Source: Escherichia phage kvi. From it: DNA of 64,000 nucleotides. The position numbers and the translations under genes were made by a program. The DNA lies in sequence record MN850615.1; one strand, written 5' to 3'. Under the pieces are notes generated by a model. That model saw only the letters and a list, made by a program, of their open reading frames with translations. It did not search any database and was not told the origin of the DNA. Below are positions 21,526-37,313 of this stretch, piece after piece (position 1 is the first letter of the stretch; each line of letters starts with the position of its first letter).

Positions 21526-21690
21526 TTAGAACATTTTTGAAATTAATTCTGCTTTGATTTCGCAGAGAACATCTAAAGATTTCTCGTCACCCGCTTTTGC
21601 TGCTTCTGCTTGCATTTTTGAAATGGCTTCAATGTCAGTGCAATTATAAGCCGCTTGAACTTTAGCGATTGCGATGATTAAGTGTTTCAT
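21526..21690 (-). CDS. Hypothetical small protein (54 aa)
   Basis: Not in track; AGGAGA SD; immediately downstream of promoter at 21723. Confidence 0.4.
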   Translation of the reverse strand: MKHLIIAIAKVQAAYNCTDIEAISKMQAEAAKAGDEKSLDVLCEIKAELISKMF

Positions 21691-21759: not shown

Positions 21760-22278
21760 TTAGTTATTTTTTAATTGCTCATCTTGCAATAGGGCAATCA
21801 CATGCTGGCGATGTTCTTCCGATTGAGGCACACCGAAAAAGTTTGTTTTGTAGAAATACTCTAATCGGTCTTCTCGTGTGCTCTCTTCCATCATGATCGC
21901 GGGTAGTCCGAGATTTCTGAAACGTCGCTTTTCTGCTGGCGTAAAATCACTGTAATACAACATAGAATCATCATTACAAGCAATGCTAAACTCATCATTC
22001 ATAAAGGAGAATATTGCGTTTAAACGCTGTTTACCGTCCACGATTTCGATCTCATAGCGAGAGCCATCATCAATCTTAGCCATTGCGATAGCACCAACCG
22101 GAAAATCATTAATAAGGTTTTCGATAAACATACGTTTGTTTTCGGTGTCCCATACTAAAGGACGCTGATAATCTGGGTTCATGTTGATATAGCCATCTTC
22201 TAACCATGCATCATAAACAGAGATGACAAAGTTTTTAGTATTGGTATAGTAACGGCGTTTAGGCGTTAAACGGTTCAT
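21760..22278 (-). CDS. DUF262 / ParB-like (GmrSD N-terminal-type) domain protein
   Basis: 172 aa from ATG 22278; PDYQRPLVW and IVDGKQRLNAI match DUF262 signature; no nuclease domain. Confidence 0.6.
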   Translation of the reverse strand: MNRLTPKRRYYTNTKNFVISVYDAWLEDGYINMNPDYQRPLVWDTENKRMFIENLINDFPVGAIAMAKIDDGSRYEIEIVDGKQRLNAIFSFMNDEFSIACNDDSMLYYSDFTPAEKRRFRNLGLPAIMMEESTREDRLEYFYKTNFFGVPQSEEHRQHVIALLQDEQLKNN

Positions 22279-22279
22279 G

Positions 22280-22612
22280 TTATAGTCTCCTGAATGGATC
22301 ATCACGTAAATCAATATCTTTTAAGAACTCATCCCATGAATGCCGGATATTGTTCTTAATTCTCCAGATAAGCGCAGGGATTGAACGCTCTCCCATCTGG
22401 AAGTATGGATCATATGATCCGTATGCCCAATATGCTACTACAATTCCACAATCAGCGCAATAGTATTCTATTTCACTGGCTGGCGACCAAAGTCCATCAA
22501 TATGATCGGTGATCTTGCTTTCGATGTTATGGCTATGACAATCAGGGCAACGGATGCAATGACCTTGTTTATCGTAATTTGACGTTAGCGAATACTTAAA
22601 CAATCTCATCAT
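22280..22612 (-). CDS. Zinc-ribbon protein
   Basis: 110 aa; CIRCPDC ... CADCG; ATGATGA overlap with upstream gene. Confidence 0.55.
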   Translation of the reverse strand: MMRLFKYSLTSNYDKQGHCIRCPDCHSHNIESKITDHIDGLWSPASEIEYYCADCGIVVAYWAYGSYDPYFQMGERSIPALIWRIKNNIRHSWDEFLKDIDLRDDPFRRL

Positions 22613-24457: not shown

Positions 24458-24486
24458 ATTATGCTATGTTCTTACTTTGGTGTCAA
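24458..24486 (-). promoter_or_regulatory. Early promoter (TTGACA-17-CATAAT)
   Basis: rc of TGTCAA..ATTATG with conserved leader. Confidence 0.6.
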
Positions 24487-24804: not shown

Positions 24805-24833
24805 ATTATGCTATAGGCGTGATCTGGTGTCAA
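24805..24833 (-). promoter_or_regulatory. Early promoter (TTGACA-17-CATAAT)
   Basis: rc of TGTCAA..ATTATG. Confidence 0.6.
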
Positions 24834-24854: not shown

Positions 24855-24881
24855 ATAAAAAAGCCGACGCTAAGGTCGGCT
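24855..24881 (-). terminator. Rho-independent terminator (- strand)
   Basis: AGCCGAC-GCTAAG-GTCGGCT followed on - strand by TTTTTTATT. Confidence 0.6.
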
Positions 24882-24938
24882 AATAAAATCATTTAGACAA
24901 ATAATCATTCTGCGCAATCCGGTCGGCGTATGCTGGTG

Positions 24939-25196
24939 TTATGTCAATCGCCAGCACTTTAACGCGTGCTTTCTTACGACCTGGTTTTCTCGTAACCAGT
25001 GCTCATGACCGTGAACATTTTTATACTGCGATGCTTCTTCGAAGGTACGGATCGGACCTGGGTAATCAGCGTAAAGGATCTCTAGATCTTCGGTGATGTA
25101 AAAATATACATCATAATGGCTGTTCTCTAGTTTAAGCAGAGAGTTGCGAAATTGTGGTAAATTCTCGCGGGTAAATTCAACTACAAGATTTTTCAT
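24939..25196 (-). CDS. HxHW-family small protein, apparently frameshifted/truncated
   Basis: 85 aa from ATG 25196; family motif HGHEHW present but conserved VLAIDI tail is in another frame ending at 24889. Confidence 0.4.
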   Translation of the reverse strand: MKNLVVEFTRENLPQFRNSLLKLENSHYDVYFYITEDLEILYADYPGPIRTFEEASQYKNVHGHEHWLRENQVVRKHALKCWRLT

Positions 25197-25219
25197 AGTG
25201 ATATCCTCATTCAGATAGA

Positions 25220-25243
25220 TTAAAAGGGGGGCGTTAATCCCCC
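25220..25243 (-). terminator. Terminator-like hairpin
   Basis: GGGGG-CGTTAAT-CCCCC with A/T flanks. Confidence 0.4.
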
Positions 25244-25248
25244 ATATA

Positions 25249-25536
25249 TTAAAACAGTCCTTCCTGTACACCGTAGTAGAGTTCGTCGCTGATAATTTCA
25301 TTAATGCGACGGTGTGCATATTCCTGATTTGCGAAGTTGTCAGCAAGTTCTACTTTAGTTTCGCCGTCATGAGTCCATTTAGTGATAACTTTACCATCTG
25401 CAAATTTGAAGTTGAACTCTTTAGCTACTGCATCGCGTACCAGACGTGCGAACTTGTTGTTACGGATTGCATTGTCTGTTTCGTTTGCAGCGTGAGCAAA
25501 TTTGTTAACTTTCAGAGTGATAGTAATGTATGCCAT
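25249..25536 (-). CDS. Hypothetical protein (AKEFN family)
   Basis: 95 aa; RLVRDAVAKEFN; paralog of 28564..28875. Confidence 0.55.
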   Translation of the reverse strand: MAYITITLKVNKFAHAANETDNAIRNNKFARLVRDAVAKEFNFKFADGKVITKWTHDGETKVELADNFANQEYAHRRINEIISDELYYGVQEGLF

Positions 25537-25582
25537 AATTTTATTCTCCTAGTTAGAAAGTGTATCTCGTTTCGATGGGGAT

Positions 25583-25611
25583 ATTATGCTATATCCCCGA
25601 TCCGGTGTCAA
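25583..25611 (-). promoter_or_regulatory. Early promoter (TTGACA-17-CATAAT)
   Basis: rc of TGTCAA..ATTATG. Confidence 0.6.
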
Positions 25612-25617
25612 CACTTT

Positions 25618-25896
25618 TTATAAAATAATTTTTTGATATTTTTCTATGATGTTCGTGTAAGTCACATCAACCGCTAGCACCGTTGCTTCGAATCCACCGT
25701 TTAGCCAATGGCTATGATCATGATCGTGAAAGAAACCTAGACCAGTACGAAGACCTTCTTTATATTCTGCGCGTACATTCAGTTTGTCGTCGATAAACAG
25801 ATAAAACCATGAATTTTTACTAGGATTGATGATACAACCTTTCAGATTAGGGAGAATATCACGACTAAGAATAAACTTATCACCTACTTTGAACAT
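25618..25896 (-). CDS. HxHW-family small protein
   Basis: 92 aa; FHDHDHSHW..VLAVDV. Confidence 0.5.
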   Translation of the reverse strand: MFKVGDKFILSRDILPNLKGCIINPSKNSWFYLFIDDKLNVRAEYKEGLRTGLGFFHDHDHSHWLNGGFEATVLAVDVTYTNIIEKYQKIIL

Positions 25897-25900
25897 AATA

Positions 25901-26221
25901 TTAGTCCTCACTTATAAGGTCAAACCAATTGTTTTTCGCATAATGCTTAATGCGTGCTTGATCTGCTTCCGCTGGTGATAGATTCCATGCAACCACTACA
26001 ACTTCTGACGCATCGTCATCCGTTTCTGATACCCAATGATTGTGATTCATACAGTTATTTGCTATCGAGTGAGCAAATGATTTCATCACTGGAGACGTAT
26101 AATCATAGTAACGGATTTTCAGATTTTCATCAACGTACAAATAGATCGTATAAGGTTTATATTCAGTAACCAGTAACAGACAGTTACGCAATTCTGGGAA
26201 AATCTTTTTAGTTAATTTCAT
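25901..26221 (-). CDS. HxHW-family small protein
   Basis: 106 aa; NHNHW..VVVVAWN; N-terminus similar to 24939 member. Confidence 0.5.
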   Translation of the reverse strand: MKLTKKIFPELRNCLLLVTEYKPYTIYLYVDENLKIRYYDYTSPVMKSFAHSIANNCMNHNHWVSETDDDASEVVVVAWNLSPAEADQARIKHYAKNNWFDLISED

Positions 26222-26222
26222 T

Positions 26223-26441
26223 TTATAATCCTCGGTCGCGGCTATAGTACACGGTACGCCATACAATTTCATGTTTCGTGTCGCTCCAGCACACGATCTC
26301 ATTTACTCTTAAATCTTTGTTATCAACAAAAGATGAACATTGTGACGCTTCTTTCATCATTTTATATGCTGTTTTCTCATCAAATACAGCACAGATTTCT
26401 TTATACACTCGATAATCTTTGAATTGACTCTGGATACCCAT
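26223..26441 (-). CDS. Hypothetical protein (paralog pair with 26401..26658)
   Basis: 72 aa from ATG 26441; FKDYRVYKEI..KMMKEASQC. Confidence 0.45.
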   Translation of the reverse strand: MGIQSQFKDYRVYKEICAVFDEKTAYKMMKEASQCSSFVDNKDLRVNEIVCWSDTKHEIVWRTVYYSRDRGL

Positions 26442-26658
26442 AATTAACACCATTCCAACCAATTGTTTTTGAGAAAACGTTTATCCACTGTTGAGTGTAG
26501 CATGTTTCTTTCCATGATACAATACGAGTAGAATAATGGTTTTTGTTTCCAGAAAAGGACGGGCATTTTGATGCATCTTCCATCATCTTTTCGGCGAACT
26601 CTGGTGCGTATACTCGCAGGATCTGTTGATATGCTTTGTATTCTTTAAATTTGCTCAT
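26401..26658 (-). CDS. Hypothetical protein (paralog pair)
   Basis: 85 aa; FKEYKAYQQI..KMMEDASKC; 3' end overlaps next gene in another frame. Confidence 0.45.
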   Translation of the reverse strand: MSKFKEYKAYQQILRVYAPEFAEKMMEDASKCPSFSGNKNHYSTRIVSWKETCYTQQWINVFSKTIGWNGVNYGYPESIQRLSSV

Positions 26659-26923
26659 AATCATTCACTACCTTATCAGCTTCTTTTGTTGTTTTTACAT
26701 CAACTGCGATAACTCGTAAATGTTCGTCATGGTTCCACCAGTGGTCATGAATATCAGCTTGTGATTTATCACCAAAGGAATCACGAATATCATTTTTACA
26801 TTTATAGCTAATGTGACCTTCATAGTCAACATAAAGGTAATTATCGAAAATCGGCGTTTTTAAGATCATACCGAAAAATCTTTCTTTGTGTGTCTTATCC
26901 AGCGTTGCAGTAATTCGCATCAT
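26645..26923 (-). CDS. HxHW-family small protein
   Basis: 92 aa; IHDHWWNHDEHLRVIAVDV. Confidence 0.5.
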   Translation of the reverse strand: MMRITATLDKTHKERFFGMILKTPIFDNYLYVDYEGHISYKCKNDIRDSFGDKSQADIHDHWWNHDEHLRVIAVDVKTTKEADKVVNDYEQI

Positions 26924-26935
26924 AATATATTCCTC

Positions 26936-27115
26936 TTAGAAAGGGATGGTCATTTCTTGAGCTTGTACATTCTCGTTAGGATTAAACTTCATCCAACCGA
27001 TATTGTCTACCAGCATATGCACATTTTTATCATATCCTACGTGGGTAGTCAATACTGTATGTGCTTTACCTTCAATGATGAGTTCCATGTACTTCTGAAC
27101 TTCGATAGCTTTCAT
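26936..27115 (-). CDS. Hypothetical small protein (59 aa)
   Basis: Not in track; conserved leader; downstream of promoter at 27148. Confidence 0.4.
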   Translation of the reverse strand: MKAIEVQKYMELIIEGKAHTVLTTHVGYDKNVHMLVDNIGWMKFNPNENVQAQEMTIPF

Positions 27116-27147
27116 TTTGATTCTCCGTTTGTTGTCTTGATGGGAGT

Positions 27148-27176
27148 ATCTTACTACTCCCTTTAATCATTGTCAA
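27148..27176 (-). promoter_or_regulatory. Early promoter variant (TTGACA-17-TAAGAT) with hairpin over -10
   Basis: GGGAGTAGTAAGATACTCCC palindrome overlaps -10. Confidence 0.5.
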
Positions 27177-27179
27177 CTA

Positions 27180-27347
27180 TTATTTGTTAATTTCTGGTGC
27201 GTTGCTCGGATAGTAACCTTCTTTAACACCAAGATATTTTGCAACCATTCCGGTGATCTTCTGTGCTACTACGATATCGAATTTCAGGTAGTCTTCACCG
27301 TGGTTTGCTACAATGTACGCTTCGCATTCTGCTTTAGTCTGGAACAT
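27180..27347 (-). CDS. Hypothetical 55-aa protein, paralog B
   Basis: MFQTKAECEAYIVANHGEDYLKFDIVVAQK...; duplicate of 23899..24066. Confidence 0.45.
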   Translation of the reverse strand: MFQTKAECEAYIVANHGEDYLKFDIVVAQKITGMVAKYLGVKEGYYPSNAPEINK

Positions 27348-27381
27348 TTTTGATTCTCCTATATCTCGTTGGTATGTGTGC

Positions 27382-27410
27382 ATTATAGGGGATCGGTGAT
27401 CCCCTGTCAA
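27382..27410 (-). promoter_or_regulatory. Early promoter with palindromic spacer
   Basis: TTGACA-GGGGATCACCGATCCCC-TATAAT. Confidence 0.65.
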
Positions 27411-27415
27411 CAACT

Positions 27416-27709
27416 TTATAATGCTTTATATGCGTATTTCATAAATTTGTCTGCCACTTCATTGGCATGTTCAGATTCTACGCCTGATTCGAGAACAATA
27501 GCTAGGTCGGTTTCGTCATTCCCGCCGTACCAATGATTTGATGTTCGATTTTTTTCAATTGGAAATTGGTCACTTTTATCTGTGCGACAAAATACATCTA
27601 AATGCTCGTCGATGTAAAAGATCCAATCTTCATAAAGAATAACGGTATTAGAAAGATTTTTATTGCCTTCAACGAAAGGTTCGGCTACAAACAAATTAGT
27701 ATGTTCCAT
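27416..27709 (-). CDS. HxHW-family-like small protein
   Basis: 97 aa from ATG 27709; YIDEHLD..NHWYGG..LAIVLESGV; GAGGA SD. Confidence 0.45.
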   Translation of the reverse strand: MEHTNLFVAEPFVEGNKNLSNTVILYEDWIFYIDEHLDVFCRTDKSDQFPIEKNRTSNHWYGGNDETDLAIVLESGVESEHANEVADKFMKYAYKAL

Positions 27710-27725
27710 AGTATTTTCCTCAAAA

Positions 27726-27917
27726 TTATACAGCTTCGTAAACTTCCCAATGTCCAACACCAGCACGCTTAACGAAAAGGTTTTCTTTGATGTTATTCAT
27801 AAACGTCTGGATGGATTTAATGCGATTTGAAGGTTTCCAGTCTTCGTTGGCATTGCGTCGATACATCATAACATTACCAGTTCGCTTATATTCAGCAACC
27901 ATTTTAAGACCACACAT
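27726..27917 (-). CDS. Hypothetical protein
   Basis: 63 aa; GAGGA SD. Confidence 0.45.
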   Translation of the reverse strand: MCGLKMVAEYKRTGNVMMYRRNANEDWKPSNRIKSIQTFMNNIKENLFVKRAGVGHWEVYEAV

Positions 27918-27966
27918 AATATTATCCTCAATTTGTGGGAGAGTATTACCCCTCCCAATGATTGTT

Positions 27967-27995
27967 ATGTTATATCACACAAAATGGCGTGTCAA
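27967..27995 (-). promoter_or_regulatory. Putative early promoter (TTGACA-17-TAACAT)
   Basis: -35 lies within the 3' end of the upstream gene. Confidence 0.4.
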
Positions 27996-28295
27996 TGCTT
28001 CTTTTGCGGTTCCGCTAAGACTTTCGATCTCGCCTGGCATAACATCAACCGCCAGAACTTCTACAACATCCTCGGACCCTAACCAGTGAGTATGACCTTT
28101 GTAGAACTTAATAACCAGACTACCTTCCTCGTCCCATTTAACGCTATCGCTAGCCCACCACACATCACCGTCGATAAAGTTGATGTAAAGCACACTACGC
28201 CACATTGAATTAATTACTTTCAATACTGCGCCTTTCATCTCTTCCACGGTATGGTCTTCCATTTTGAAGACCTCACCTACCTGAACTTTTGCCAT
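27975..28295 (-). CDS. HxHW-family small protein
   Basis: 106 aa; GHTHWLGSEDVVEVLAVDV; GAGGTG SD. Confidence 0.5.
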   Translation of the reverse strand: MAKVQVGEVFKMEDHTVEEMKGAVLKVINSMWRSVLYINFIDGDVWWASDSVKWDEEGSLVIKFYKGHTHWLGSEDVVEVLAVDVMPGEIESLSGTAKEALTRHFV

Positions 28296-37283: not shown

Positions 37284-37313
37284 ATATTACTACCCCCCGT
37301 TATTCAGTGTCAA
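37284..37313 (-). promoter_or_regulatory. Early promoter variant with hairpin over -10
   Basis: TTGACA-18-TAATAT, GGGGGGTAGTAATATACCCC. Confidence 0.45.

Follow-up and report, generated by a model that had tools for sequence, protein, structure and literature searches.

The 85-codon open reading frame (ORF) recorded at 24939–25196 of Escherichia phage kvi is a frameshifted version of a conserved 102-residue gene, the orthologue of RB49 ORF197c, and we consider it somewhat more probable than even (about 0.55) that a real slippage mutation, the loss of one C from a CCC run, produced it. Read this way, the change is an unremarkable loss of one base from a homopolymer, in an accessory gene that the phage can do without. 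The window, that is, the whole 64,000-nucleotide stretch analysed here, derives from a genome of 163,673 bp (MN850615) and belongs to an RB49-like, T4-type phage of the genus Krischvirus. The region matches 56–58 records of such phages at 83%–98% identity, and none of the records in the phage collection searched is identical to it.

The frameshifted gene and its intact relatives

The product of the recorded ORF (Table 1) is identical to QHR71544.1 (P0036), which is annotated as "hypothetical protein kvi_65 [Escherichia phage kvi]". It runs from MKNLVVEF to NVHGHEHW, continues as LRENQVVRKHALKCWRLT, and ends at the stop at 24939–24941 (minus strand); its final 14 residues, QVVRKHALKCWRLT, are out-of-frame sequence, so that the native residues number 71. 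In the -1 frame, no stop interrupts the sequence from 25002 onward, which gives ...KKARVKVLAIDITPAYADRIAQNDYLSK up to a stop at 24889–24891 (minus strand); 7 nt separate this stop from the terminator hairpin that follows it at 24862–24881. An earlier note on this DNA had described a family-type tail in an adjacent frame that would end at about 24889 beside the terminator, and this description proved accurate. It had also identified the ORF and its HGHEHW motif correctly, but had put the stop 8–16 codons after HGHEHW, whereas it falls 18 codons past HW.

Table 1. Features of the truncated gene, its cassette, and its intact paralogues (window coordinates)
Feature	Position	Strand	Remarks
Truncated ORF	24939..25196	minus	85 aa plus TAA stop at 24939–24941; start ATG at 25196
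GAGGA ribosome-binding site	25204..25208	minus	7 nt upstream of ATG 25196; read from sequence
HGHEHW motif	24996..25013	minus	preceded by NV (...NVHGHEHW)
Lesion site	24983..24984	minus	CC left from CCC run; from alignment with relatives
Ancestral codons 72–102 plus TGA stop	24889..24982	minus	now in the -1 frame; reads PGRKKARVKVLAIDITPAYADRIAQNDYLSK, then stop
Intrinsic terminator	24855..24881	minus	stem 24862–24881, T-run to 24855; stem-loop half of PeSL boundary
Sigma-70-type early promoter, TTGACA-17-CATAAT	24805..24833	minus	next cassette; promoter half of PeSL
GGGGG...CCCCCC stem-loop	25226..25243	minus	between upstream gene and truncated gene
Intact paralogue, 92 aa	25618..25896	minus	phrog_17255
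Intact paralogue, 106 aa	25901..26221	minus	phrog_9345
Intact paralogue, 92 aa	26645..26923	minus	phrog_15972
Intact paralogue, 106 aa	27975..28295	minus	motif GHTHW...VLAVDV

Where relatives read GAAAACCCAGG, the window reads GAAAACCAGG, with one C fewer in the alignment. This is the sole gap in the alignment with Whisky, RB49, and KFS-EC, each of which has an annotated 309-nt coding sequence for 102 residues, and the identical one-base gap is present against JEP8 and Logan contigs L011 and L012 as well as in the comparisons of 40 kb with four relatives. The earlier note had thus been right to expect a single-nucleotide indel in the interval from HGHEHW to the VLAIDI tail, although not at 24955–24975 as it had suggested; the missing base maps about 8–10 nt upstream, at 24983–24984. 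Because restoring one C gives 100% identity over 309 nt with intact genes elsewhere, the resemblance of the downstream frame to the family is, to judge from this match, not a chance one.

The gene is orthologous to RB49 ORF197c (AAQ15426.1), JEP8_045, and Whisky HFGIMCCB_00195, which fall in phrog_9345. The restored 102-residue protein matches this profile with E = 3.7e-48 (residues 1–102 on profile positions 1–102 of 106), and the ORF as recorded shares just residues 1–71 with the group. The position of the locus is kept as well, between the orthologues of ORF198c and ORF196c/194c and ending at the same terminator. Relative to the RB49 ORF197c group, the kvi gene has the same neighbours, ribosome-binding site, and terminator at 96%–98% DNA identity, but is one C short and encodes 71 native plus 14 out-of-frame residues instead of 102.

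Among the 56 phage records detected by tblastn with the restored 102-residue protein, 54 carry a single full-length match (80%–99% identity), and only JSE, represented by two records of one genome, is split. Similarly, all 35 full-length orthologue clusters in a collection of 5.8 billion proteins are 100–103 residues long, and the sole short clusters are those of kvi (85 residues) and JSE (80 residues); one metagenome contig and one IMG/VR contig carry CCC. The earlier note had proposed comparison with relatives as the way in which the short form might turn out to be the conserved state, and with 54 of 56 records intact it did not. The displaced tail has zero nonsynonymous changes relative to Whisky, RB49, KFS-EC, and JEP8, and the pN/pS ratio across nine orthologues is 0.19 for codons 1–71 and 0.12 for codons 72–102. 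The latter value argues that the tail is coding sequence selected in its ancestral frame, and its codons are, on this measure, under purifying selection. At the level of sequence, these comparisons show that the intact 102-residue form is the conserved state, that the deletion is a derived, singleton change, and that no decay has followed in the downstream frame of the kvi copy. As in a pseudogene, the copy is disrupted relative to intact orthologues that evolve under purifying selection, with no secondary decay after the C is restored.

The same orthologue is broken in JSE (EpJSE_00203/EpJSE_00202), also by a one-base homopolymer deletion that leaves the tail in another frame. The JSE event is nonetheless independent of that in kvi, as a run of five A is shortened to four upstream of HGHEHW (TATAAAAATG to TAT-AAAATG), the JSE product loses the invariant histidines, and the gene is annotated as two coding sequences. 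The JSE deletion, which may be a true mutation or a sequencing miscount of the homopolymer, lies within 304–611 of L004 (JSE, EU863408).

The HxHW family and the predicted effect of the deletion

Within 24889–28295, the window encodes five proteins in which HxHW precedes a V-[LIV]-A-[VI]-D-[VI] strand, and the four besides kvi_65 match the annotated lengths of their JEP8 orthologues. The residues invariant among 29 family members are His64, His66, Trp67, and Ala83. In kvi, the ORF frame holds both histidines and the tryptophan, and Ala83 with the VLAIDI strand is found only in the -1 frame. By these signature residues the gene descends from the HxHW family, but part of the signature is missing from its annotated product. 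An AlphaFold model from 29 family members (pLDDT 80.8, pTM 0.77) has four N-terminal strands, places HGHEHW in a poorly defined loop, and includes a strand at 77–83 (VKVLAID) and a C-terminal helix at 88–100 among its most confident parts. With everything after residue 71 replaced by the frameshift, the predicted beta-strand 5, the C-terminal helix, and Ala83 are lost from the modelled fold.

We propose that one C was dropped from the CCC run, most likely by polymerase slippage during phage replication. Translation would then leave the ancestral frame after Asn71, add 14 unrelated residues, and stop at 24939–24941. With strand, helix, and invariant Ala83 all removed, the 85-residue product is most likely non-functional, and its loss would be tolerated because the gene is accessory and four intact paralogues adjoin it. 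Dispensability is supported both by the tandem arrangement of these four paralogues and by the independent frameshift of the same gene in JSE.

No Pfam family scored above threshold for the protein, the PHROG entries phrog_9345, phrog_17255, and phrog_15972 all have no assigned function, and the BFVD matches were without exception uncharacterised proteins of this family, which a profile search found confined to Krischvirus-sized contigs. Our working guess is a small early protein with putative host-factor or metal-ion binding via the histidine pair. A phmmer search of 1.84 billion proteins also pulled in, through residues 56–89, large bacterial sortilin-Vps10/BNR beta-propeller proteins (P0039–P0048), each by 4–7 weak repeats of about 7 bits apiece that are summed. 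The propeller pattern is ...GGxHWxxxxxGL....VxxLAIDPxNP, compared with HGHEHW...VKVLAIDITP in the family. We did not accept the resemblance as a sign of BNR/sortilin homology, as the scores are sums of weak repeats and the Asp-box residues (S-x-D-x-G-x-T/x-W) are absent, the family having N-V-H-G-H-E-H-W here; none of the four family members scanned matched a BNR-type Pfam model at E <= 1. More probably than a single-blade origin, the propeller resemblance reflects convergence on a motif, amplified by the number of repeats.

Origin of the missing base

The exact restored protein (P0080) is present on the Logan assemblies of runs ERR15880647 and ERR15880661, and the window gene with one C added is identical to the intact genes of both over 309/309 nt. 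Because of this identity, the lesion, as far as divergence can date it, is of very recent origin unless the record is in error. The window and contig ERR15880647_84928 disagree at three points in 2,401 bp, namely a substitution at 26721 and a C-run shortened by one base in the window both at 25231, within the intergenic stem-loop of Table 1, and at 24984; look-ups of proteins from the neighbouring DNA yielded contigs of other runs alone. In a comparison of about 40 kb of the window with four relatives (colinear over 42.6 kb with JEP8), we counted eight indels private to the window, among which that at 24983–24984 is the sole one to break a coding frame; one is a 15-nt in-frame deletion, and the others are intergenic. 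One-base intergenic homopolymer expansions at 37293 (C5 to C6; about 12 contigs covering the site) and 37604 (A6 to A7; about 15 contigs) are private to the window and bear on whether the record holds consensus errors.

Phage kvi came from wastewater in Denmark, with E. coli MG1655 as the isolation host, and its genome was sequenced from Nextera XT libraries on an Illumina NextSeq and assembled de novo with CLC and SPAdes; coverage was x59 according to Supplementary Table S1, and the lysate was not a pure clone, as a second phage was also present (PMC7552041). Were the missing base a consensus (sequencing or assembly) error, the phage itself would have CCC and the intact 102-residue gene, and one base would have been lost in the deposited sequence. 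We give this explanation serious weight, if short of even odds. The CC allele is a singleton, being found in none of the 54 other phage records, IMG/VR, metagenome contigs, GTDB genome contigs, or complete E. coli genomes (the scans of the last four returned CCC alleles or no match); the truncated ORF is on record in no independent assembly, and its protein (P0036) is known from the GenBank genome only. An error would also fit the undecayed tail frame and the fact that the restored gene agrees at every base with the intact genes of two independent Logan assemblies. The mixed lysate and the de novo CLC/SPAdes assembly at x59 add to its plausibility, but coverage of this depth should outvote sporadic errors. 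Illumina chemistry seldom miscounts a run of three bases, and no other gene is broken in about 40 kb, though longer homopolymers are more error-prone. Homopolymers elsewhere in the record point in both directions: two of the three differences from the near-identical Logan contig are C-runs one base shorter in the window, and private length changes cluster at 25231, 37293, and 37604, but the apparently private indels at 21680 and 21741 (C4 to C5) are exactly matched by the independent assembly DRR831685, so the record is accurate at other homopolymers of unusual length. On account of the x59 Illumina coverage, and because no other indel in about 40 kb disrupts the reading frame of a gene, we favour a real mutation over a consensus error and infer that the lesion lies in the phage DNA rather than in the record only.

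That the break is real and yet not silent, through either low-level -1 slippage at A_AAG or homopolymer on/off switching across the five-member family, is very unlikely. Programmed or leaky -1 frameshifting between Trp67 and the stop at 24939–24941 would yield a near-full-length protein with an altered linker, detectable as a product carrying VLAIDITPAYADR peptides. Its attraction is that the tail lies in the -1 frame, so that, as at programmed -1 sites such as E. coli dnaX (A_AAA_AAG) and the phage tail chaperone G/GT, a -1 coding segment overlaps the end of the upstream ORF. The overlap zone (24942–25005) contains three A_AAN tetranucleotides, A_AAC once and A_AAG twice, and E. coli ribosomes are known to be prone to shifting at A_AAG as an A-site motif. 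In contrast to those programmed sites, however, kvi has no slippery heptamer, convincing stimulator, or conserved two-frame layout. None of the 21 zero-frame heptamers of the zone has the form X_XXY_YYZ. The candidate site G_UUA_AAG (24957–24963) is followed directly by a 7-bp hairpin in the predicted fold, but this hairpin begins 0–1 nt past the site, which is too close, and the stability of the local RNA fold does not exceed that of shuffled sequence (z = -1.5). No Shine-Dalgarno-like element was seen upstream, and the A or T run of about eight or more that transcriptional slippage would use is absent, the longest run in the zone being A4. The two-frame layout is moreover unique to the kvi record, as JSE breaks elsewhere, upstream of the motif, and the identical sequences stand in-frame in 54 intact relatives, so that selection cannot have shaped them for shifting. 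We consequently regard frameshifting as extremely improbable; a leak of about 1% may occur at A_AAG, without sign of a programmed signal, and the locus contributes nothing new on recoding. Re-initiation at GTG 24957, which would serve a 22-codon tail ORF, was rejected, with no Shine-Dalgarno-like sequence ahead of it.

An equally slender chance attaches to a functional 85-residue isoform, or to an on/off switch by which homopolymer slippage toggles members of the five-gene family. Two independent homopolymer frameshifts in the same gene among about 55 genomes (C3 to C2 in kvi and A5 to A4 in JSE) are what a switch would produce; the gene would then have been turned "off" independently in kvi and in JSE, in populations that vary in which paralogues are expressed. 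Known contingency tracts are, however, far longer than these runs of three and five bases, and the two truncations end on opposite sides of the invariant HxHW. No second occurrence of either short form turned up in the other genomes or metagenomes searched, and the short form is without the invariant Ala83 and the best-modelled core strand. Among the three explanations put forward in the earlier note, recoding now has a very low probability, and nearly all of the probability is shared between a fresh pseudogene and an error.

The kvi_65 entry (85 residues) and the UniProt/BFVD entries describe a truncated, partly out-of-frame product of a conserved 102-residue gene, and the practical value of the present result is mostly one of annotation, as these entries merit a flag as a frameshifted copy. 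If the favoured slippage mutation is real, kvi also provides a natural knock-out for one of five paralogues in an uncharacterised early family specific to Krischvirus, and the intact, otherwise identical allele that exists in nature would complete a clean pair for testing the role of the gene.

Cassette setting and other observations in the window

Arbiol et al. (2010) described PeSLs, in which a promoter and a stem-loop are combined, as cassette boundaries around nonessential ORFans in RB49 and phi1, and hyperplastic regions have been described as rich in nonessential ORFans (PMC2839356). Judged from its surroundings, the kvi gene is a small early ORFan in such a PeSL-bounded cassette, located in the hyperplastic region that alt and gene 30 (DNA ligase) flank. 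A terminator hairpin directly precedes a sigma-70-type early promoter at the cassette boundary, so that the kvi ORFan, like those of RB49 and phi1, is bounded by a G/C-rich terminator stem-loop and then a strong early promoter (PMC2839356). Whereas the work on RB49 and phi1 concerned recombination by which entire cassettes are gained, lost, or exchanged, the kvi cassette is in place with one base missing (PMC2839356). The near-consensus promoter TTGACA-17-CATAAT occurs three times in 1.2 kb (24458–24486, 24805–24833, and 25583–25611, all on the minus strand), and of the copies in the scanned stretch it is that at 24805–24833 that directly follows a terminator hairpin, the PeSL pattern. The C-run of the stem-loop at 25226–25243 ranges from C4 to C7 among relatives, with C6 in the window and C7 in Logan contigs that are 99.9% identical to it; PeSL stem-loops appear to be hotspots of homopolymer length change. 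In RB49, the 25-codon RB49p196.1 (L002, AY343333, 610–687) overlaps the stop of ORF197c, spans the terminator hairpin, and looks like an over-call.

Several further features were seen in the window and its relatives. At about 32190, the window has 16 nt that are absent from JEP8, where 29906–30204 of L005 is annotated as two short "tail fibers protein" coding sequences; JEP8 seems to have a frameshift of its own in this gene. In Whisky (L008, MZ504878, 3400–7392), the ribonucleotide reductase large subunit is in two pieces and the small-subunit region in three, and RB49 and KFS-EC have a single gene for each of these subunits; the split in Whisky could be due to inserted elements or frameshifts. 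Finally, an early ORF at 21760–22314 of the window (minus strand) corresponds to a 172-residue product with a GmrSD_N match (PF03235, DUF262-type) in Logan contig L023, and this phage GmrSD-like N-terminal domain might be related to defence or counter-defence.
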